A stretch of 64,000 bases of DNA from Limnothrix sp. BL-A-16 (GTDB lineage Bacteria; Cyanobacteriota; Cyanobacteriia; CACIAM-69d): the NCBI GenBank assembly GCA_041937175.2, contig CP166615.1, forward strand, positions 704,001-768,000. Direction: 5' to 3'. Shown in pieces: positions 6,984 to 53,052 of this stretch. How positions within the stretch are numbered: position 1 is the first letter of the stretch; the number at the start of each line of letters is the position of its first letter. The notes under the pieces are model-generated. The model saw only the letters and a list, made by a program, of their open reading frames with translations, did not search any database and had not been told where the DNA came from. Position numbers and translations under genes: made by a program.

Positions 6984-7256
6984 CCTGAAAGCTTAAAAGA
7001 TCACGAACCTAGAAAGTAATTCCCCTGGAAGATCGTGATTTTACGAAGGTGCAGGCAAGGGGCTTAAGCCCCTTGTCTTCTGGGGAACTGGGTTAGGATA
7101 ATTTGGGCTAAGCCTGAAGGCTTAACAGTCACGAACCTGGAAAATAATTCTCCTAAAAGATCGTGATCTTGGAAGATCATGATTTTACAAAGGTGCAGGC
7201 AAGGGGCTTAAGCCCCTTGTCTTCTGGGGAACTGGGTTAAGATAATTTGGGCTAAG
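6984..7256. repeat. Imperfect tandem duplication (about 129 + 144 bp), each unit with the CAAGGGGCTTAAGCCCCTTG palindrome
   Basis: Units 6984-7112 and 7113-7256 share CCTGAA.GCTTAA...CACGAACCT...GCAGGCAAGGGGCTTAAGCCCCTTGTCTTCTGGGGAACTGGGTTA.GATAATTTGGGCTAAG. Confidence 0.9.
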
Positions 7257-12010: not shown

Positions 12011-12949
12011 ATGCGTGTTTTAGTGATGGGTGGAACGCGGTTTATTGGCGTTTATTTGACCCGATTATTGGTGGAAAAAGGTCATGAAGTCACCCTATTG
12101 AATCGTGGTCGTAAGCCCTCACCCGTGGAAGGTCTGGAAGTCATTCAGTGCGATCGCACCCAAGGCGATGAATTGAAATCGAAACTAGCCCATCGGCACT
12201 TTGAATGGGTGTTTGATAATAACGGTCGTGAACTCAGCGACACGCAACCGCTGGTGGAAGTGTTGCGCGGCAAAACCGAGCATTTTCTTTACATGAGTTC
12301 GGCTGGTGTTTACCTGAAAACTGACCAATTGCCCCACTGCGAAGCAGACCCCGTTGATCCCAAAAGTCGCCACAAGGGCAAACATGAAACGGAAAGTTAT
12401 TTAGCCCACCACGACGAACCCTTCACATCGTTTCGACCAACCTATATCTACGGGCCCCTGAATTACAATCCGTTGGAATCTTGGTTTTTTGATCGGATTG
12501 TGCGCGATCGCCCCATTCCCATTCCCGGCAACGGATTACACATCACCCAACTGGGCCATGTGGCTGATTTGGCCAGCGCCATGGTGGCGGCGGCGGGTAA
12601 CTCCAAAACCATCGGCAAAATCTACAACATTTCGGGCGATCGCTACGTCACCTTCGATGGTTTGGCGCGAGCCTGTGCGTTGGCGGCCGGTAAAGATCCG
12701 GAGCAATTGCAACTGATTCATTACGATCCCAAGCAATTTGATTTCGGTAAGCGGAAAGCTTTCCCGATGCGCGTTCAGCATTTCTTTGCCAGCAATCAAC
12801 AAGCAAAACAGGATTTGGGTTGGCAACCTGCCTACGATTTGGTTTCTGGGTTGCGAGATGCGTTTGAAAATGATTACTTACTGTCGGGAGCCGATCGCGC
12901 GGAAGTGGACTTTTCAACGGATGAAGAAATCCTGACAGCCTTGGCTTAA
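12011..12949 (+). CDS. NAD-dependent epimerase/dehydratase-fold protein, CSP41-like RNA-binding
   Basis: MGGTRFIG, YMSSAGVY, RPTYIYGP and KAFPMRVQHFFAS typical of the CSP41 family. Confidence 0.85.
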   Translation: MRVLVMGGTRFIGVYLTRLLVEKGHEVTLLNRGRKPSPVEGLEVIQCDRTQGDELKSKLAHRHFEWVFDNNGRELSDTQPLVEVLRGKTEHFLYMSSAGVYLKTDQLPHCEADPVDPKSRHKGKHETESYLAHHDEPFTSFRPTYIYGPLNYNPLESWFFDRIVRDRPIPIPGNGLHITQLGHVADLASAMVAAAGNSKTIGKIYNISGDRYVTFDGLARACALAAGKDPEQLQLIHYDPKQFDFGKRKAFPMRVQHFFASNQQAKQDLGWQPAYDLVSGLRDAFENDYLLSGADRAEVDFSTDEEILTALA

Positions 12950-13131
12950 ATCTGTCGAAAACTCTTGCGAAATCGTGAGGGGCAAGGGGCTTAAGCCCCT
13001 TGTCTGGTTGTGTTGAGAATGTCCACTAATGAAGAAATCCTGACAGCCTTGGCTTAAATCTGTCGAAAACTCTCGCGAAATCGTGAGGGGCAAGGGGCTT
13101 AAGCCCCTTGTCTGGTTGTGTTGAGAATGTC
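12921..13131. repeat. 108-bp tandem duplication containing the epimerase 3' end and the palindrome
   Basis: ATGAAGAAATCCTGACAGCCTTGGCTTAAATCTG...GTTGAGAATGTC at 12921 and 13029, near-identical. Confidence 0.95.
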
Positions 13132-14750: not shown

Positions 14751-14881
14751 GAGGTTGTTTGAAAAGCCAAAATTGCTACTCTCTACGCCCTAGCAATCAA
14801 TGTAGACAAGGGGCTTAAGCCCCTTGCCCCCAAGACCATTAGTGCTTGGCCCATGCCAAAAGATACTTTTCAAACATCCTC
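14751..14881. mobile_element. MITE-A, 131 bp, uninterrupted copy
   Basis: TIR GAGGTTGTTTGAAAAG / CTTTTCAAACATCCTC; TGA direct repeat on both sides; central palindrome at about 14807-14826. Confidence 0.9.
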
Positions 14882-14954
14882 TGATCAAAATTTTGAAATT
14901 GGTTTCCGATTGGGTTGCCTATTGTTTTTTGATCACTTGTTTTCTAAAAATCGG

Positions 14955-15089
14955 TTAATCCAAGATTGATTAGTTTGAGATGAATTAATGCCAAATTGCT
15001 TAATCCAAGATTAATTAACCCAAGATTGCTTAATCTAAGATTAATTAGTTTGAGAAGGATTAATGCCAGATTGCTTAATCCAAACTAAT
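14955..15089. repeat. 15-bp period degenerate tandem array (about 9 units, consensus TTAATCCAAGATTGC)
   Basis: TTA recurs every 15 bp from 14955; the ninth unit starts at the LysR stop codon (15075). Confidence 0.85.
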
Positions 15090-18034: not shown

Positions 18035-18071
18035 GCAGTTTCCAAGCCGCCGTCGGTTCAAAGCCCCCTAA

Positions 18072-18347
18072 GAGGATGTCTGAAAAGCCAAAATCGATAC
18101 TCTGCACGCCTCATCGATCGACGGAGACAAGGGGCTTAGGGCCTGTCGTCATTATTTCGAGGTGATGCTGAAACAGTTGATCTTCCATGCCCTAGTCGTC
18201 GCAACAAGGGGCTTAAGCCCCTTGTCCCCCACGATCCGCTAACGGCAGAATCAGGGTTTCAGGCGATTTGACGACAGGCCCTAAGTCCCTTGCCCCCACG
18301 ACTATTGGTGCATTGCCCGTGCCAAAAGACACTTTTCAGACATCCTC
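18072..18347. mobile_element. MITE-A carrying a nested MITE-B
   Basis: Perfect TIR GAGGATGTCTGAAAAG / CTTTTCAGACATCCTC; TAA direct repeats; 276 bp minus insert (143+2) = 131 bp. Confidence 0.92.
18139..18281. mobile_element. MITE-B, 143 bp
   Basis: TIR GGGCCTGTCGTCA / TGACGACAGGCCC; TA duplicated; has its own central palindrome at about 18205. Confidence 0.92.
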
Positions 18348-18458
18348 TAAAATCGCCGATTGTGCCCTGGCCGACTTGATTGGCGACTTGCGCGATCGGG
18401 GTGGGTCTGCTTTGCTGTTGGCGAACTCAATCCCGCATCAGTCTTTTACTGCCATTTT

Positions 18459-27799: not shown

Positions 27800-30460
27800 A
27801 TGTCGCGGAACCGGTTTTTGGAAGCATTTTGGGGTTTGAGTGCAGATGAAGCGCGATCGTTTCAACTTCCCGGAGCCAAGCCCCACTATCTTCCCGATCG
27901 CCCGGTGCGGACACAACATGTGGCCCTTGATTTGGTGTTGGACATTCCCAATTGTCGGGTAGCGGGAACCTGCTCGATCGACCTGTTGCCCGTGCAAGAT
28001 GGGGTCGATCGCCTGGAATTAGATGCGGTGGCTATGCAAATTCAAGGGGTTCGGGTGGGCGAAGCTGCCCAGCAATTTGAATATGATGGCGAGCAGTTAG
28101 CGATCACTCTGTCGGAGCCAACCCAGCGCGATCGTGCCTTCAAATTAGTCATTGACTATCAATTAGATCGTCCCCAACGCGGCATTTACTTTGTGCAGCC
28201 CACGGCGGACTATCCCAATAAAAATGTGCAGGTTTGGACCCAGGGAGAGGATGAAGATTCTCGCTTCTGGTTCCCCTGTTTTGATTTTCCAGGACAACTC
28301 TGCACCTCGGAAATGCAGGTGCAAGTGCCCAATGGTTTGCTCGTACTCTCGAATGGAGAGCTGATTAATCAGACAACCAAGGGCAAAACCACCACTTACC
28401 ATTGGCATCAAAAACAGCCTCATCCCATTTATCTGTTTACTCTGGCCGTGGGAGATTTTGCAGAGATTAAAGATGAGTGGCGCGGCCGACCTGTGAGCTA
28501 TTACACCGCTCAGAATCGGGCTTCGGAAGCCCAGCGCACCATGGGCAAAACGCCCGCGATGATGGATTTTCTCAGCGAAAAATTTGACTATGACTATCCC
28601 TATAGCAAGTATGGGCAAGCTTGCATGGAGGATTTCATTTTTGGAGGCATGGAAAATACCTCCATGACCCTGTTAACCGATCGTTGCTTGTTAGATGAAC
28701 GAGCCGCGATCGATAATCGCAATTCTGAAGCTTTGGTGGTTCATGAGCTGACGCACCAGTGGTTTGGTGATTTGCTGGTCATTAAGCATTGGTCCCATGC
28801 TTGGCTGAAAGAAGGCATGGCCACCTATTCCGAAACCCTCTGGACTGAGCATGAATATGGATCGGAGGAAGCAGCCTATTATCGCTTGGGTGATCAGCGG
28901 GCCTATTTAGGGGAAGATCGGCGGCGCTACCGACGGCCCATGGTGACCCATGTTTATCGCGAGCCGATCGAACTCTACGATTGCCATACCTATGAAAAGG
29001 GCGGCTGTGTTTATCACATGCTGCATCAGGAATTGGGCGATGATTTGTTTTGGAAATCGATTCAAACATTTGTCAAAAATCACGCCTTTGGTGCTATCGA
29101 AACGATCGACCTCTTGCGAGCGATCGAACAGGCAACGGGTCGAAATTTGTTGTTTCTGTTTGATCAGTACGTGTTTCGGGGAGGTCATCCTGATTTCAAA
29201 GTTGCCTATAGCTGGGATGGAGAAAATAAGATTGCAAAATTGACCGTGACCCAAACCCAAGCCAAGGAAGGGGATTTGGAGACGCTGTTTAATTTGAAAA
29301 TTCCAGTGTCCTTTGCGACCCTCAGCAGTGAAGCAGCCAGCCCTGCTCCGAAATCGAAGAAGTCGAAAAAAGTAGCGGCTCCCGCCCCTAAGGTCACGTT
29401 CAAAACCGTGAAGCTGGCCATTCACGATCGGGAACAAACCTTCTACTTACCCTTGGAGCAAAAACCAGATTTCGTCAGTTTTGATCCGGGGAATCATTGG
29501 CTGAAAACGGTGGAGCTAGATTATCCGCTGCCGGAATTGAAAGCCCAATTGCAGTTTGATCCTGACCCGATCGCCCGAGTATTTGCGGCGAAAGCGATCG
29601 CCCAGAAAGGCACGCTGGAGGCCTTGAATGCTTTGGCCCAATCCCTGACGAGCGATCGCTTTTGGGGGGTGCGTGCCGAGGTGGCAGAAAATCTGGCCAC
29701 CATCGGTTTAGATGGGGTGTTGGCTGCCCTGAAGCCGGGGTTGAAGGATTCGGATCCCCAAGTGCGTCGATCGGTGATTCAGGCCATTGCCTCCCTCAAA
29801 ACCGAAGCAGCTTATTCAGCGCTGGAGTCGATCGCCAAGAAGGGCGATGCCAGTTACTACACCGAGTCGGCGGCCTTGGCGGCCATCGGGTCGATCGCGG
29901 CGGCCCAGCCGGCCTTGGTCGATCGGGCGATTGCGTTGCTCAAATCGGCCCTGAAAAAGCGATCGGGCTGGAATGAAGTCGTTCGTTCCGGGGCCGTCAG
30001 CGGCCTAAGCGCCCTCAAGACCTCTGCCGCCGCCCTGGATTTGGTGCTGGAAACCAGCCAACCGGGCATTCCCCAGGCCCTACGCTTAGCGGCGATTCGG
30101 GCCCTGGGCGCGGTGGCTAACGGCCAAGAAGCCCCAGCGGTCGATCGGGTGTTGAATGCACTGCAAACCTATGCCCGCGAGAGCTTTTTCCTCACCCAAG
30201 TGGCGGTGGTGGTTGCCCTAGGACAAATGGAAACTACCAAGGCGATCGGGATTTTGCAAGGGTTGGCCAGCCAGTCGCCCGATGGCCGCGTGCGCCGGAT
30301 GGCGGAAGAGGCCGTGAAGCGAGTGCAGCACAATGCGGGTTCCGATCGCGCCTTGGATCAGGTGCGCCAAGAGCTAGATCAACTGAAAAAAGACAACCAA
30401 ACCCTGCGATCGCGCCTGGAAGACTTGGAGGCAAAATCAAAACCGCAACCCGCGAGCTAG
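27800..30460 (+). CDS. pepN: M1 aminopeptidase N with C-terminal HEAT repeats and coiled coil
   Basis: GGMEN, HELTHQWFG...WLKEG and YEKG. Confidence 0.92.
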   Translation: MSRNRFLEAFWGLSADEARSFQLPGAKPHYLPDRPVRTQHVALDLVLDIPNCRVAGTCSIDLLPVQDGVDRLELDAVAMQIQGVRVGEAAQQFEYDGEQLAITLSEPTQRDRAFKLVIDYQLDRPQRGIYFVQPTADYPNKNVQVWTQGEDEDSRFWFPCFDFPGQLCTSEMQVQVPNGLLVLSNGELINQTTKGKTTTYHWHQKQPHPIYLFTLAVGDFAEIKDEWRGRPVSYYTAQNRASEAQRTMGKTPAMMDFLSEKFDYDYPYSKYGQACMEDFIFGGMENTSMTLLTDRCLLDERAAIDNRNSEALVVHELTHQWFGDLLVIKHWSHAWLKEGMATYSETLWTEHEYGSEEAAYYRLGDQRAYLGEDRRRYRRPMVTHVYREPIELYDCHTYEKGGCVYHMLHQELGDDLFWKSIQTFVKNHAFGAIETIDLLRAIEQATGRNLLFLFDQYVFRGGHPDFKVAYSWDGENKIAKLTVTQTQAKEGDLETLFNLKIPVSFATLSSEAASPAPKSKKSKKVAAPAPKVTFKTVKLAIHDREQTFYLPLEQKPDFVSFDPGNHWLKTVELDYPLPELKAQLQFDPDPIARVFAAKAIAQKGTLEALNALAQSLTSDRFWGVRAEVAENLATIGLDGVLAALKPGLKDSDPQVRRSVIQAIASLKTEAAYSALESIAKKGDASYYTESAALAAIGSIAAAQPALVDRAIALLKSALKKRSGWNEVVRSGAVSGLSALKTSAAALDLVLETSQPGIPQALRLAAIRALGAVANGQEAPAVDRVLNALQTYARESFFLTQVAVVVALGQMETTKAIGILQGLASQSPDGRVRRMAEEAVKRVQHNAGSDRALDQVRQELDQLKKDNQTLRSRLEDLEAKSKPQPAS

Positions 30461-30738
30461 GGCCCGTCGTCATTTCCTGGGATTCAATGAGAACGGTTGA
30501 TCTTCCATCCCCTAACCGCCCTAAACAAGGGGCTTAAGCCCCTTGTCCCCCACGATCTGCTAACGGCAGATCATGGGTTGCGGGTTAAACGATGACCAGT
30601 CCTCAGCCCCTTGTCCCCCACGATCTGCTAACGGCAGATCATGGGTTGCGGGTTAAACGATGACCAGTCCTCAGCCCCTTGTCCTCCACGATCTGCTAAC
30701 GGCAGATCATGGGTTGCGGGTTAAACGATGACAAGCCC
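30460..30738. mobile_element. MITE-B with its right half tandemly triplicated (68-bp unit)
   Basis: Left TIR GGGCCCGTCGTCA; palindrome at about 30526; units start at 30537, 30605 and 30673, with a partial fourth at 30741. Confidence 0.88.
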
Positions 30739-30831
30739 TAAGCCTCTTGCCCCCACGATCTGCCAACACCCCCCACGATCCGCCAACAGGGGAATCAGGG
30801 TTGCAGTCCCGTTGCAGGGCCTTCAGACCGC

Positions 30832-32091: not shown

Positions 32092-32631
32092 GGTTTTAAA
32101 TCCTGAGGAGCGAACAGGGAACCCGATCGGGAGTCCCCTGAGAAAATTCTGGGAGAAGCCTTCTGTTGGCTTCTTTGACTACTTCTGAAAAGGGGGTTGA
32201 AATCCGGAGATCGGAGTGGTGGACAGTTGAAGAACTGGCAATTTTTAACTGGGCCAAGCTTTTCAAAATCACCAAATTCCATCTCAATTCGGAGTTTTCC
32301 TTTTTTTCCCTTTTCAGTTACTTCATCAGACAATTGCGGTTCCTAATTGGTTTCCTGGCATGGGCCAGTTACCAATCTGTCAAGTTTTCAACTACTTGAA
32401 GTAACGAATCAGGGTGTTGAATTTCCTGGTTTTGGAAGCTTGTGACAATTAAGAATTTGGATGTAAACCACTGAAAATTGAAGGGTTGATGAATAAAGGA
32501 TCAGGCGATTCTTGAATCAGAAATCGAAAGTGCAAAATCGAAAATAACCAATCCAACGGCTTGAATAGCGGTTAAGGAAGGGGCTGAATGACCCACCCAA
32601 TCTTTGGGCCGTTTATCCCGATATGAACTAA

Positions 32632-32834
32632 GGGGATCTCTGAAAAGCCAGAACTGTTACCTTGTGGATCTCGTCAACGGCAGAGACAAGGGGCTTAAGG
32701 GCAGAGACAAGGGGCTACCTTGTGGATCTCGTCAACGGCAGAGACAAGGGGCTTAAGGGCAGAGACAAGGGGCTACCTTGTGGATCTCGTCAACGGCAGA
32801 GACAAGGGGCTTAAGCCCCTTGCCCCCCCACGAC
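32632..32834 (+). mobile_element. Partial MITE-A variant with internal 58-bp tandem repeat
   Basis: TAA|GGGGATCTCTGAAAAGCC end; 58-bp units at 32658, 32716 and 32774; palindrome at about 32803; no second TIR seen. Confidence 0.8.
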
Positions 32835-32965: not shown

Positions 32966-34153
32966 ATGCCTGCTTTTTTGCCTCAAAATGCCGATCTTGT
33001 CCTGCGAGGGGCCCAATATCGCGATTTGGATGCGATCGCCCAGCTTGCGGCGGACTCAGCGGACTTTGACGGGCTAGGAAGCCCCTTGGAAACGGCGGGG
33101 GTGGATTGGTCGCGGCTGCGCACTTGGTATGGCTTATCGGCACTGGTGGAGATGATGGCTCCCAGCCAACGGCGGTTGCGGGCCAGCGTGGCCGAGCGCG
33201 ATCGGCGGGTTTGCGGGGCGATCGCGGTGATGCCCGTGAATCGATCGCGCAGCACTTGGCGTGTGAAGCAGGTGGCCGTGATGCCGGAATGTCGCAGCCA
33301 GGGCATTGGTTCCGAGCTGTTGCGCTACTGCTTTGAAACCATTTGGGAAGCACGCACCTGGATGCTGGAGGTGAATGTGCATGGCAAAGATGCCCTGGCA
33401 CTCTATCGCCAAAACGGATTCCAGCCGATCGCCCAGTTAACCTATTGGTCTATTCCGCCGGCCGCTCTCACGGCCCTGGCGGAGCGGGAACCGGACTTGC
33501 CCAACCTGATGCCGGTGGGCAATGCCGATGCACCCTTGCTTTACCAACTCGACACGGCGGCCATGCCCCCCCATGTGCGCCAGGCCTTTGATTTGCGCGT
33601 CGATGACTTCAAGGCGGATTGGTTGGCGGCCCTGGCGGACACTCGGCAGCGGATAGATGGGCTGGAAACCACGATGGGTTATGTGTTTGAACCCCAACGG
33701 AAAGCCGCGATCGGCTATTTCCAAGTGCGATCACACCGATATGCAGCGCTGCCCCATCGGGCGGAGTTAACCGTGCATCCGGCCTATACCTGGCTCTATC
33801 CCGAGTTGATGGCTCAAATGGCGCGGATTACCCGATCGCTCAATGCCGATTTGCCCCTGTTGCTGGCTTCTGCGGACTACCAACCGGAACGGGAAGCCTA
33901 TCTGGAAAGCATTGGGGCCGAGCGGTTTGAGCATTCTTTGCTGCTGTCGCGATCGGTTTGGCACAAGCTGCGGGAGACTCGATCGATCTCCTTGGATGCC
34001 CTGCAAGAGATGCTAAACGGCTGGCAACCGGCCAAACCGATGACCGGTGGCGGTCGGGTCTATTGGTCGAGTGCTTGGGATGGGCCCACCTTTGACCCGC
34101 CGGAAGACCCCCCGGAGAATCCCGAAACACCGGAGCCGCCCGCCCAATCCTGA
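32966..34153 (+). CDS. Tandem GNAT-family N-acetyltransferase
   Basis: VAVMPECRSQGIGSELL acetyl-CoA motif; ALALYRQNGFQ; second degenerate GNAT half. Confidence 0.88.
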   Translation: MPAFLPQNADLVLRGAQYRDLDAIAQLAADSADFDGLGSPLETAGVDWSRLRTWYGLSALVEMMAPSQRRLRASVAERDRRVCGAIAVMPVNRSRSTWRVKQVAVMPECRSQGIGSELLRYCFETIWEARTWMLEVNVHGKDALALYRQNGFQPIAQLTYWSIPPAALTALAEREPDLPNLMPVGNADAPLLYQLDTAAMPPHVRQAFDLRVDDFKADWLAALADTRQRIDGLETTMGYVFEPQRKAAIGYFQVRSHRYAALPHRAELTVHPAYTWLYPELMAQMARITRSLNADLPLLLASADYQPEREAYLESIGAERFEHSLLLSRSVWHKLRETRSISLDALQEMLNGWQPAKPMTGGGRVYWSSAWDGPTFDPPEDPPENPETPEPPAQS

Positions 34154-34210
34154 GCTAGTGCCTTAGAGCATGTCTGAGCAGTGACTTAGGGTACTGGCAA
34201 AGCACGAAGA

Positions 34211-34295
34211 GTCGTTGGGGCAAGGGGCTTAAGCCCCTTGTCTCTGCCGTTGATGAGATCCACAAGGTAACAGCGCTGGCTTTTTAGAGATCCGC
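34211..34295 (-). mobile_element. Partial MITE-A variant, inverted relative to the 32632 copy
   Basis: Reverse complement GCGGATCTCTAAAAAGCCAGCGCTGTTACCTTGTGGATCTCATCAACGGCAGAGACAAGGGGCTTAAGCCCCTTG closely matches 32632 onward. Confidence 0.82.
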
Positions 34296-35027
34296 TTAGC
34301 CCATGTCGGGATAGGCGGCCCACAGATCGGTGGTTTCGCGCAGGCTGCGAAATTCCCCATAGCCCACCACCAAATGATCCAACAGCGGCAGCTCCAGAAA
34401 ATGGGCCCCCGCCAAAAGCTGCTGCGTGAGGGTCAAGTCCTCAGGGCTGGGGGTTAGGTCGCCCGAGGGGTGATTGTGGGCCACAATGCAGGCGGCAGCG
34501 CCCTGGCGAATCAGCTCCCGAAAAATATCGCGAGGATGGGCTAGGGTTTGGGTTTCCGTCCCGATCGTCAGGACTTGGGTGGCTAGGAGTCGATTTTTGG
34601 GATCTAACAACAACAGGGCGAACCGTTCCTGAGGTTGCCACATCAAGTCTTGACTGAGGGCAGTGGCGGCGGCGGCTGGGGTATCGATTACGGCGCGATC
34701 GAGCGGTCGGGTTTGCAAAATCCGCTTGCCCAACTCGACCGCTGCCAAAATCGCCGTAGCCTTGGCATCGCCCACCCCGTGAATTTGGGTCAGTTCCGCC
34801 AAGGACGCATCGCGCAAGACGGCCAGCGGATCCTGGCGATCGCCCCCCAAGGTTTGCAAAATCAGTTGCCCCAACCCCACGGCGGAGAGTTTGCCCGGCC
34901 CTTGACCCGTGCCCAGCAAAATAGCCAACAGTTCCGCATTCGAGAGGCTGCGGGGGCCAAAGGCGGCCAACCGCTCCCGGGGGCGTTCTGTGGCCGGTAG
35001 ATCCTGAATCCGAGGGTTGTAGGTCAT
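34296..35027 (-). CDS. radC: RadC family JAB-domain protein
   Basis: [17 protein letters not shown], HhH motif [22 protein letters not shown] and LLDH. Confidence 0.94.
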
Positions 35028-39552: not shown

Positions 39553-41621
39553 TGAATCCTGACGACCGGCCAGAAACAACCAACGGGAACGATCGCACCT
39601 ACGATCGCCTAATTGCCTCCTTGGAAATGGGGCTGGGGCAATTGCAGGTGCTGTTGGCCAGTTGCGACCACGATCGCCAACGACTGGCTTGGATCGATCG
39701 CTACGAAGCGGAACTGCAAGGCCAAGCCCAGCCGTTGCGAGTGCGGTTGGATGCGACGGAACCCAGCTTGCATCAGGCCGTGGCCCAAGCCTTGGCTGAT
39801 GTGACTGACCCCAGCTTGCCGATCGTGGTGACGGTGACGGGCAGCGAGGCACTGGGCTTGACGGGGCCGGAGCCGATCGAGAAATTCCTAGGCTATTTGC
39901 AGTGGACGCGGGAGGCGTTGCGGGAGTTTGCCTTGCCGATCGTGCTGTGGTTGCCGGAGCGGCTGTTGCCGGAGCTGCCCAGAAAGGCCCCGGACTTTTG
40001 GAGCTGGCGCGATGGTGTGTTTTTGTTCAAGGTGGTGACTCAGGCAGCGGTCAGCCCTTCCGAGATCATCCCGGAGCGGATCGAGCCGCGAGCCTCAGAC
40101 AGCAACGATGCAGGCAGCCTGTCGATCGCGGACTTGGAAGCTTCTTTGGCCGCCGCCGAAACCCAGCTTGGCCCCAACAGCCTGGCCGTGGCGGATTTGT
40201 TGCGACAGTTGGGCGATCGCTATGCCGATCGCTATCGAGCGGGTCGGGGACCCGAGGAAGCGATTCCCGCCGAAGCCTACTACCAACGGGCGATCGCGCT
40301 CTACGAAACCCACGAGCGATCGGCGGATCTGGCCACCAGCCTCAACAACTTGGCAGGACTCTACGAATCCCAGGGACGATACGAGGCAGCGGAACCCCTC
40401 TACCAGCGATCGCTGGAAATCTGGGAGCAAGGGCTGGGAGCCGACCATCCCCTCACCGCCACCAGCCTCAACAACTTGGCAGGACTCTACTCATCCCAGG
40501 GACGGTACGAGGCAGCGGAACCCCTCTACCGGCGATCGCTGGAAATCCGTGAGCGATTGCTGGGAGCCGACCATCCCGCCACCGCCACCAGCCTCAACAA
40601 CTTGGCAGAACTCTATCGATCTCAGGGACGGTACGAGGCAGCGGAACCCCTCTACCGGCGATCGCTGGAAATCTGGGAGCAAGGGCTGGGAGCCGACCAT
40701 CCCGACACCGCCACCAGCCTCAACAACTTGGCAAACCTCTACTCATCCCAGGGACGGTACGAAGCAGCGGAACCCCTCTACCGGCGATCGCTGGAAATCA
40801 AAGAGCAAGTGCTGGGAGCCGACCATCCCGACACCGCCACCAGCCTCAACAACTTGGCAGGACTCTACAATTCCCAGGGACGGTACGAGGCCGCGGAACC
40901 CCTCTACCGGCGAGCGCTAGAAATCCATGAGCGATTGCTGGGAGCCGACCATCCCGCCACCGCCACCAGCCTCAACAACTTGGCAGGACTCTATCGATCC
41001 CAGGGACGGTACGAAGCAGCGGAACCCCTCTACCGGCGATCGCTGGAAATCAAAGAGCAAGTGCTGGGAGCCGACCATCCCGACACCGCCACCAGCCTCA
41101 ACAACTTGGCAGGACTCTACAATTCCCAGGGACGGTACGAGGCCGCGGAACCCCTCTACCGGCGAGCGCTAGAAATCCATGAGCAAGTTCTAGGAGCCGA
41201 CCATCCCCACACCGCCACCAGCCTCAACAACTTGGCAGGACTCTACAAATCCCAGGGACGGTACGAGGCAGCAGAACCCCTCTACCGGCGATCCCTGGAA
41301 ATCCGTGAGCAAATGCTGGGAGCCGACCATCCCGACACCGCCAACAGCCTCAACAACTTGGCAAACCTCTATCGATCCCAGGGACGGTACGAGGCAGCGG
41401 AACCTCTCTACCTCCGCTGCTTGGAGATTTGTCTAGAAAAACTCGGTCAAGACCATCCCAACACCCAAACCGTCCAGAAAAATTTCCGCAGACTCGTGCA
41501 AGCCGTCCTCAAAGCCGGTGGCGCAAGCCTTGCGGAGCAATCTCGTGCCGCCGAACTTTCCGACCATCCCCTCACCCAAGCCATCCTGCAAGAACTCACC
41601 GCCCCACCCGAAACCCCGTAG
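39552..41621 (+). CDS. Protein with N-terminal alpha/beta domain and nine near-identical 42-aa TPR repeats
   Basis: TGATG overlap with the ATPase gene; repeat HPxTATSLNNLAxLYxSQGRYEAAEPLYRRSLEIxExxLGAD. Confidence 0.9.
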   Translation: MNPDDRPETTNGNDRTYDRLIASLEMGLGQLQVLLASCDHDRQRLAWIDRYEAELQGQAQPLRVRLDATEPSLHQAVAQALADVTDPSLPIVVTVTGSEALGLTGPEPIEKFLGYLQWTREALREFALPIVLWLPERLLPELPRKAPDFWSWRDGVFLFKVVTQAAVSPSEIIPERIEPRASDSNDAGSLSIADLEASLAAAETQLGPNSLAVADLLRQLGDRYADRYRAGRGPEEAIPAEAYYQRAIALYETHERSADLATSLNNLAGLYESQGRYEAAEPLYQRSLEIWEQGLGADHPLTATSLNNLAGLYSSQGRYEAAEPLYRRSLEIRERLLGADHPATATSLNNLAELYRSQGRYEAAEPLYRRSLEIWEQGLGADHPDTATSLNNLANLYSSQGRYEAAEPLYRRSLEIKEQVLGADHPDTATSLNNLAGLYNSQGRYEAAEPLYRRALEIHERLLGADHPATATSLNNLAGLYRSQGRYEAAEPLYRRSLEIKEQVLGADHPDTATSLNNLAGLYNSQGRYEAAEPLYRRALEIHEQVLGADHPHTATSLNNLAGLYKSQGRYEAAEPLYRRSLEIREQMLGADHPDTANSLNNLANLYRSQGRYEAAEPLYLRCLEICLEKLGQDHPNTQTVQKNFRRLVQAVLKAGGASLAEQSRAAELSDHPLTQAILQELTAPPETP
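40320..41460 (+). repeat. 126-bp coding tandem repeat, 9 units
   Basis: CAGCCTCAACAACTTGGCA recurs every 126 bp. Confidence 0.97.
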
Positions 41622-52784: not shown

Positions 52785-53052
52785 GAGGATGTCTGAAAGG
52801 TATTTTTGAACGTAGGTCAAGTATGAATCGTCGTTGGGGCAAGGGGCTTAGGGCCTGTCGTCGATCAGGCGAAAACGATTGATTTTCCATGTTCCAGTCG
52901 TCGTAACAAGGGGCTTAAGCCCCTTGTCCTCCACGATCCGCTAACGGTGGAATCAGGGTTTCAGGTGATTTGACGACAGGCCCTAAGCCCGTTGTCTTTG
53001 TTGGTTGGTCAGACCCGCACAAGGGGGCAATTTAGGCTTTTCAGATCCCCTC
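52785..53052. mobile_element. Diverged MITE-A (reverse orientation) with nested MITE-B at 52851-52983
   Basis: GAGGATGTCTGAAAGG / CTTTTCAGATCCCCTC with TTA/GTA flanks; inner GGGCCTGTCGTC / GACGACAGGCCC with TA duplication at the palindrome centre. Confidence 0.88.

Follow-up and report, generated by a model that had tools for sequence, protein, structure and literature searches.

The window, a stretch of 64,000 nucleotides, belongs to the complete 4.56-Mb genome of Limnothrix sp. BL-A-16 (G000), which we compared with the genomes of a congener (G002) and of a related genus (G003). Between a thioredoxin gene on one side and a dihydroorotate dehydrogenase gene on the other, the window carries two MITEs, an outer element (A) and an inner element (B) inserted into the palindrome of the first (P):

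18072..18347, plus strand: MITE-A with nested MITE-B, 276 bp; site empty in the G002 ortholog
18069..18071, plus strand: left target duplication of A, TAA; a single TAA at the G002 ortholog
18348..18350, plus strand: right target duplication of A, TAA, read from the sequence
18072..18087, plus strand: left terminal repeat of A, 16 bp; same ends on a 925-bp IS5-family element in another cyanobacterium (G109)
18332..18347, minus strand: right terminal repeat of A, 16 bp, read from the sequence
18128..18138, plus strand: left half of the palindrome P of A, ending in the duplicated TA
18139..18281, plus strand: MITE-B, 143 bp, with 13-bp terminal repeats; same ends on an 862-bp IS5-family element of G003
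18205..18224, no strand: intact 20-bp palindrome P inside B, CAAGGGGCTTAAGCCCCTTG, read from the sequence
18282..18292, plus strand: duplicated TA and right palindrome half of A, one mismatch, read from the sequence
14751..14881, plus strand: empty MITE-A with a TGA duplication, P at 14807-14826
52785..53045, minus strand: second nest, with a degenerate A-type host whose right end is undefined; B at 52851-52983 in the palindrome centre, in opposite orientation

As an earlier, sequence-only reading of this DNA had described, the outer element has perfect 16-bp terminal repeats with TAA on both sides, and the inner element is 143 bp long, ends in perfect 13-bp terminal repeats, is flanked by TA on either side and itself carries an intact copy of P. 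That the palindrome of A is split at its TA was confirmed, but the right half contains one mismatch (AGTCCCTT instead of AGCCCCTT). Removal of B together with one TA leaves, as proposed, 131 bp that align without gaps to the empty element at 14751-14881 (109/131 identical), but a nearer empty copy exists, as the host is 98.5% identical to another empty A elsewhere in G000. The closest full-length G000 relative of the inner element is just 93% identical to it, and the left and right arms of the inner element resemble different subfamilies as judged by eye. At the orthologous site, G002 has one TAA and lacks the element. Contigs from four public short-read runs, each from a different study, contain both junctions between A and its flanks, none of them covering the entire nest, and an 18-mer of the palindrome occurs 335 times as compared with zero for its reversed control, which excludes chance. 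The nest of B within the palindrome of A is real.

Other repeats in the window also contain the palindrome or parts of it. At 30460-30807, after a B-type element, half a core plus the right arm recurs in three tandem 68-bp copies, which probably arose from slippage at the palindrome. Inverted P-bearing repeats (32597-32831 and 34164-34330), one of which has a 58-bp unit three times, flank a GNAT acetyltransferase gene (32966-34153) in the manner of a composite element. Tandem pairs are located at 7026-7256 (144-bp period) and 12914-13129 (108-bp period), with one P per unit and no recognised MITE arm. The window further holds a tandem array of nine 126-bp units and a 15-bp one (40206-41513 and 14947-15083). 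HIP1, the octamer of cyanobacteria (GCGATCGC), is present in 5,252 copies in G000.

The chromosome contains 326 perfect copies of P. We assigned 508 cores to families by their arm profiles, superseding a stricter sort by terminal repeats, and obtained 82 complete A, 116 complete B and 27 copies of a third family, C, of ~142 bp with TA flanks and ends unlike those of A or B; no arm was recognised for 173 cores, and those remaining belong to half elements or hybrids. According to a rough ORF mask, 68 of the 508 lie within long ORFs and the remainder outside. Both A (131 bp, 16-bp repeats) and B (142-143 bp, 13-bp repeats) are short, non-coding and bounded by terminal inverted repeats, as is characteristic of MITEs. 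The target duplication of A is 3 bp long, with identical flanks in 77/104 copies, of which 76 are TNA in the context C-TNA-G; no preference of A for P as a target was found. For B, 259 of 328 ends have a flanking TA. Empty sites support target duplication by both MITEs, namely a single TAA in G002 in the case of A and an intact P at orthologous loci in the case of B.

Full-length copies of B number 98: P halves flank 25 of them on both sides and 22 on a single side, and the other 51 have none. Of the 35,080 YTAR sites genome-wide, 390 are intact P centres, as are 327 of the 11,880 outside long reading frames; the expected share of B copies at P centres is 1-3%, as compared with the 25/98 observed (binomial p ~1e-16 with the sites outside long reading frames), bearing out an enrichment of B at palindrome centres over other TA sites. 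The 22/98 copies with a one-sided P half indicate that recombination has acted besides transposition. B inserts also adjoin B's own ends, which resemble a half site, and in the G002 stretches just 2 of 22 B copies lie within P by a stricter pattern. The comparison with G002 covered 2.35 Mb, about half of that genome, and 205 orthologous repeat clusters with flanks 94% identical. At eight aligned loci, picked for a B-sized excess in G000, filled and empty states could be set side by side: five are clean and one less clean, with P intact in G002 and B at its TA in G000, and two are more complex. At four loci (G000:C1:1328186, 1525319, 3122893 and 3964826), the same or an adjacent site in G002 has another MITE family or a reversed B, which suggests insertion hot spots or whole-element replacement. 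At G000:C1:438684-440008, an element that we take to be IS110-like adjoins the end of a B which itself splits a P, forming a third nesting layer; its leader has short matches to the junction.

G000 itself contains a truncated IS5-type transposase with a B-type left end that begins at a P centre. A protein search with this transposase found relatives in 37 of 401 genomes, and a DNA search of 401 genomes for B's partner matched G000 only. In G003, an 862-bp element with two frames (L329) has B-type ends and a TA duplication and is itself located at a P centre within a short B-type element; its frames score 139.7 and 136.6 bits against NF033580 (IS5 family, cut-off 110). Among the 19 relatives with TA at both ends, L329 alone lies in P, the others having slightly different ends and YTAR-like flanks. 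A-type ends bound elements of 925 bp (L385) and 919 bp (L387) in two other cyanobacteria; L385, of G109, encodes a 264-residue IS5 transposase (NF033580, 224.5 bits, cut-off 110), and its flanks, TTA and TAA, are not identical. Full-length insertion sequences with the same ends were thus found for both MITEs, L329 for B and L385 and L387 for A. None of the three is in G000, where no intact transposase with the ends of A or B was found. An affinity to IS5 or IS630 had been suggested from the ends and duplications; the IS5 part stands, as the partners of both MITEs pass NF033580, and IS630 is not needed for B. Three DDE_3 loci of G000 were rejected as IS630-type partners, being without B-type ends, which belong to an IS5 element, and the IS5 elements resident in G000 were rejected since their ends differ. 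These residents include nine recent copies of a different-ended IS5-type element (L013-L021) in two subfamilies, with short elements bearing those ends nearby. A plasmid search with A's end returned no annotated element, and plasmid protein searches returned 'IS5 family' labels without subgroup. Within the family, B is presumably akin to the IS427 group and A to the IS1031 group, to judge by duplication type and frame layout; the fitting features are the TA duplication and two-frame partner of B, and the TNA duplication and GAG ends of A. A and B are thus non-coding MITEs, each sharing its ends with a different IS5-family insertion sequence of full length, and such a transposase would have moved B in trans.

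The explanation we favour, and consider probable, is that B occurs far above chance at the TA of P, likely because the P centre best matches the symmetric target of its transposase, and that the core switches in place between P and a variant, V, likely by conversion. The IS5-type transposase of B would prefer a symmetric sequence for which the centre of P is the best match, and as B carries P, every new B would add an optimal target, giving rise to B-in-A, B-in-B and B-in-C nests. Overwriting between P and V would most likely proceed by ectopic gene conversion among the ~500 copies, possibly aided by template-switch repair toward the perfect palindrome.

V, CAAGGGGCTTGAGCATCTTG, differs from P by three changes and lacks the central TA. 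It is present in 68 exact copies, as compared with zero to one for each single-step intermediate tested, and among five genomes tested it was found solely in three, all of this genus. V accounts for 28/82 cores in A, 32/116 in B, 13/27 in C and 6/173 of the armless cores, and it occurs in both orientations within A and within B. It is not a sequencing artefact, since three assemblies contain it, two of them at matching loci. In some long ORFs the core encodes an in-frame peptide, DKGLKPL for P and DKGLEHL for V (e.g., G000:C1:1429062). On arm trees from short, noisy alignments, V requires 17 changes in A and 23 in B (shuffle means 22.7 and 28.3), which is fewer than in the shuffles, so that V is partly inherited, and yet far above one origin. 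Pairs with arms at least 97% alike often differ in their core (43/105 in A and 21/32 in B), some of these arms being 100% identical. Of the 44 cores paired between orthologous loci of G000 and G002, 4 differ in P/V state; visual inspection pointed to four more such loci, whose flanks did not pass the filter. These unlike cores within identical arms and at orthologous loci show that the core has been exchanged in place, and the joint occurrence of three specific substitutions at 6% divergence excludes point mutation. The core is thus overwritten in place between P and V. No pair of near-identical A copies mixes both V orientations. The observations fit a few acquisitions of V, its amplification by transposition and a frequent return to P.

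With regard to the route of overwriting, template-switch repair of imperfect palindromes is known (PMC7202029). The mirror product of V that template switching should yield is absent from G000, which makes conversion from the many P copies the preferred route. Different families match one another around the core over just ~20 bp exactly and 45 bp loosely, which is little for ordinary recombination. Reverse transcriptase was rejected as a source of V, as none was found in G000, and so was a separate donor of its right half, for which there were four non-P matches, none of them repeat-like. V may also be immune to B: no B end lies beside the V-specific half (0/328) where about five nests would be expected, although V-bearing B copies are the younger ones and the evidence is accordingly weak. 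Among other core variants of the G000 chromosome (C1), 10 of 37 two-mismatch cores have the same symmetric double change, and a one-change variant without the central TA is present in 21 copies.

P is not confined to this genus. It was found in 15 of 41 genomes sampled, and a scan of a wider collection returned at least 116 stretches with P; the matches listed comprise 94 from Cyanobacteriota, 7 from Chloroflexota, a few from five other phyla and 6 unassigned. Among these listed matches, inverted ends bounded by TA, of several unrelated types, enclose P at 11 of 113 testable loci as compared with 4 of 571 control positions (an earlier shell test, 6/113 versus 0/286, overlooked ends including TA and was superseded by another rule). 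Further shells around P are apparent by eye, and A-type shells in other cyanobacteria hold other palindromes. In G000, core positions other than the V columns are ~99% conserved as compared with 70-89% for the arms. For the whole core, the same contrast holds across genomes: between G000 and G002 orthologs it has diverged by 4.5% as compared with 11-12% beside it. P is a modular core, conserved above its arms and found within several unrelated pairs of IS ends. At G000:C1:1212122 and 3881324, G002 has a different, GTAG-type palindrome in place of P, and one B copy of G000 landed centrally in that GTAG-type palindrome.

The recurrence of the same 20-21 bases across genomes and phyla and between unrelated ends, the conservation of the core above its arms, the 173 of 508 cores without a recognised arm, the in-frame copies in long ORFs and the other palindromes in A-type shells elsewhere might all be read as signs that P itself moves or copies itself as a minute element by means of dedicated sequence-specific machinery, colonising MITE shells, converting P into V and V into P, and perhaps placing B-filled versions in empty P sites. 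We regard this as unlikely. No clean presence/absence of a bare 20-21-bp unit was found among the orthologous loci listed (205 clusters, about half of one congener), the non-P sites used by B share a P-like consensus, and no candidate enzyme emerged. RAYT/Y1 transposases were rejected as movers of P: a single P match, with three mismatches, was found near 24 Y1 loci in five genomes, the sole Y1 gene of G000, which has no neighbouring P, scores below the cut-off for REP transposases, and G003, with 29 copies of P, has no Y1 match. G000 also lacks a reverse transcriptase, and among the 846 reading frames that surround 116 P loci, five G000 transposases used as queries yielded one weak match. A bolder synthesis, which we put forward tentatively, holds that P might be a phylum-crossing 20-bp cassette kept letter-perfect by sequence-specific copying, with an IS5 lineage tuned to its centre and V as an escape allele passed among three MITE families; if true, this would amount to an arms race of parasites over 20 bases.

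Returning to the preferred explanation, in which B is drawn to a symmetric target sequence, we built a target profile from 32 non-P B sites with a clean TA duplication, leaving out 19 of 51 that had no duplication or abutted another B. Their consensus is symmetric, near RRSCY-TA-RGSYY, and the P centre is a good match to it. The share of insertions at P centres predicted from this profile is 9-41%, depending on profile width, with bootstrap medians of 8-32% genome-wide and 19-55% in non-coding DNA, some of the 32 surviving sites perhaps being decayed copies of P. Since the non-P profile predicts a similar enrichment, a graded sequence preference suffices and hairpin recognition is not needed. 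The transposase of B would then read roughly RRSCY-TA-RGSYY in duplex DNA and not a hairpin. That it recognises an extruded hairpin or cruciform of P, rather than sequence alone, appears decidedly improbable to us, even though single strands of A and B fold stably (z -4.0 and -5.5), one non-P B site is the centre of another palindrome, and at non-coding sites B occupies 7% of P centres (25/353) but 1.5% of the looser motif CYTARG (9/602, p=1e-5). The observed share is already predicted by the non-P profile, and the matched 10-base motif RSCYTARGSY is similarly occupied outside P (2/47, p=0.76, a low-power comparison with two filled sites). Moreover, the TA in a hairpin loop would be single-stranded and a poor substrate for DDE strand transfer leaving a 2-bp duplication. 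The suggestion that two families share one hairpin acting as both cargo and landing site is therefore supported, with refinements: B carries P and lands in it, but the families sharing it are three, A does not land in P, and the hairpin is unneeded.

The hosts of the 25 two-sided nests are A in nine cases, B in five, C in one and unclassified in ten, and B lies in the same orientation as its A host five times and in the opposite one four times. No two nests reach 95% likeness in insert and host together, the identities of insert and host being unlinked. The different hosts and orientations indicate that the 25 nests are independent events and, together with the empty orthologs in G002, dispose of an origin in one event. 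It is very improbable that the nests go back to a single event, or to a handful, and were then multiplied as A+B composites or through recombination between repeats. Copies have evidently recombined, as seen in half elements, tandem B dimers, occasional hybrid arm pairs and the replacement of whole elements at orthologous loci, but the hosts come from three or more families and from unique DNA, occur in both orientations and show no linkage of identities, the orthologous hosts in G002 are empty, and the host in the window is 98.5% like empty A copies. This alternative is largely refuted for the 25 two-sided nests and plausible for many of the 22 one-sided ones.

Independent insertion of B at a preferred symmetric target, with overwriting of the core, thus remains our favoured account, and in our opinion its conserved, exchangeable core is more interesting than the nest itself. 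These elements give access to the question of how short palindromes spread and stay uniform in bacteria, which has long been open for REP- and SDR-like repeats; V provides a natural three-base marker of core overwriting at single loci, and a candidate, apparently complete transposase with a defined 20-bp target is available. As in other IS5-family MITEs, the ends of A and B match full-length IS5-family elements (NF033580), but their interiors are arms around a shared core and not a deleted transposase. Among very short cyanobacterial repeats, the nearest precedent for a tiny repeat inside minitransposons is the SDRs of the Nostocaceae, which Elhai et al. in 2008 reportedly described as 21-27 nt long, located inside minitransposons and genes and forming nests. 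According to PMC5861425, no SDR-like repeats were found outside the Nostocaceae (SDRs are also cited in PMC4390886 and PMC3733652), whereas P is spread over cyanobacteria and other phyla; P might nevertheless equal one of the published SDRs. A search of the text of openly available papers gave no match to P, V or the encoded peptide, and neither did the four text supplements of PMC3733652, so that an earlier description may exist elsewhere.

A MITE palindrome serving as the landing site of another element has a parallel in QMITE2 of Coxiella, which according to PMC10969869 is entered by IS1111 via the MITE's own palindrome. There, however, the incoming element is autonomous and of a different type, while here it is a second MITE with the same palindrome. 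The closest likeness is to the insertion sequences that target REPs: ISRm22, ISPsy8, ISPa11, ISPpu9, ISPpu10 and ISRm19 do so (Tobes and Pareja 2006, PMC1525189), ISRm22 inserting at the palindrome axis (PMC1525189), and IS1397, IS621 and IS1594 of Anabaena are reviewed as REP-targeting in PMC3184786. The precise cases tabulated in PMC1525189 belong to the IS3, IS4 and IS110 families, the IS5 family appearing there in a loose association only. Like REPs, P is an extragenic palindrome within the 20-40-bp range and in high copy, with its 326 perfect copies; unlike them it has no fixed GTAG tag or linked RAYT, no GTAG/CGTC being constant at its end, where the left flank is variable except for RAC and GTAG is in the minority. 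In both systems an abundant extragenic palindrome is reused as a transposase target, but B, as compared with the REP-targeting elements in these sources, is mostly non-autonomous, uses P in about a quarter of cases and carries the target palindrome itself. The system is therefore well supported as a self-feeding variant of REP targeting by IS5-family MITEs, a known habit that is extended here in that the invader brings its own target.
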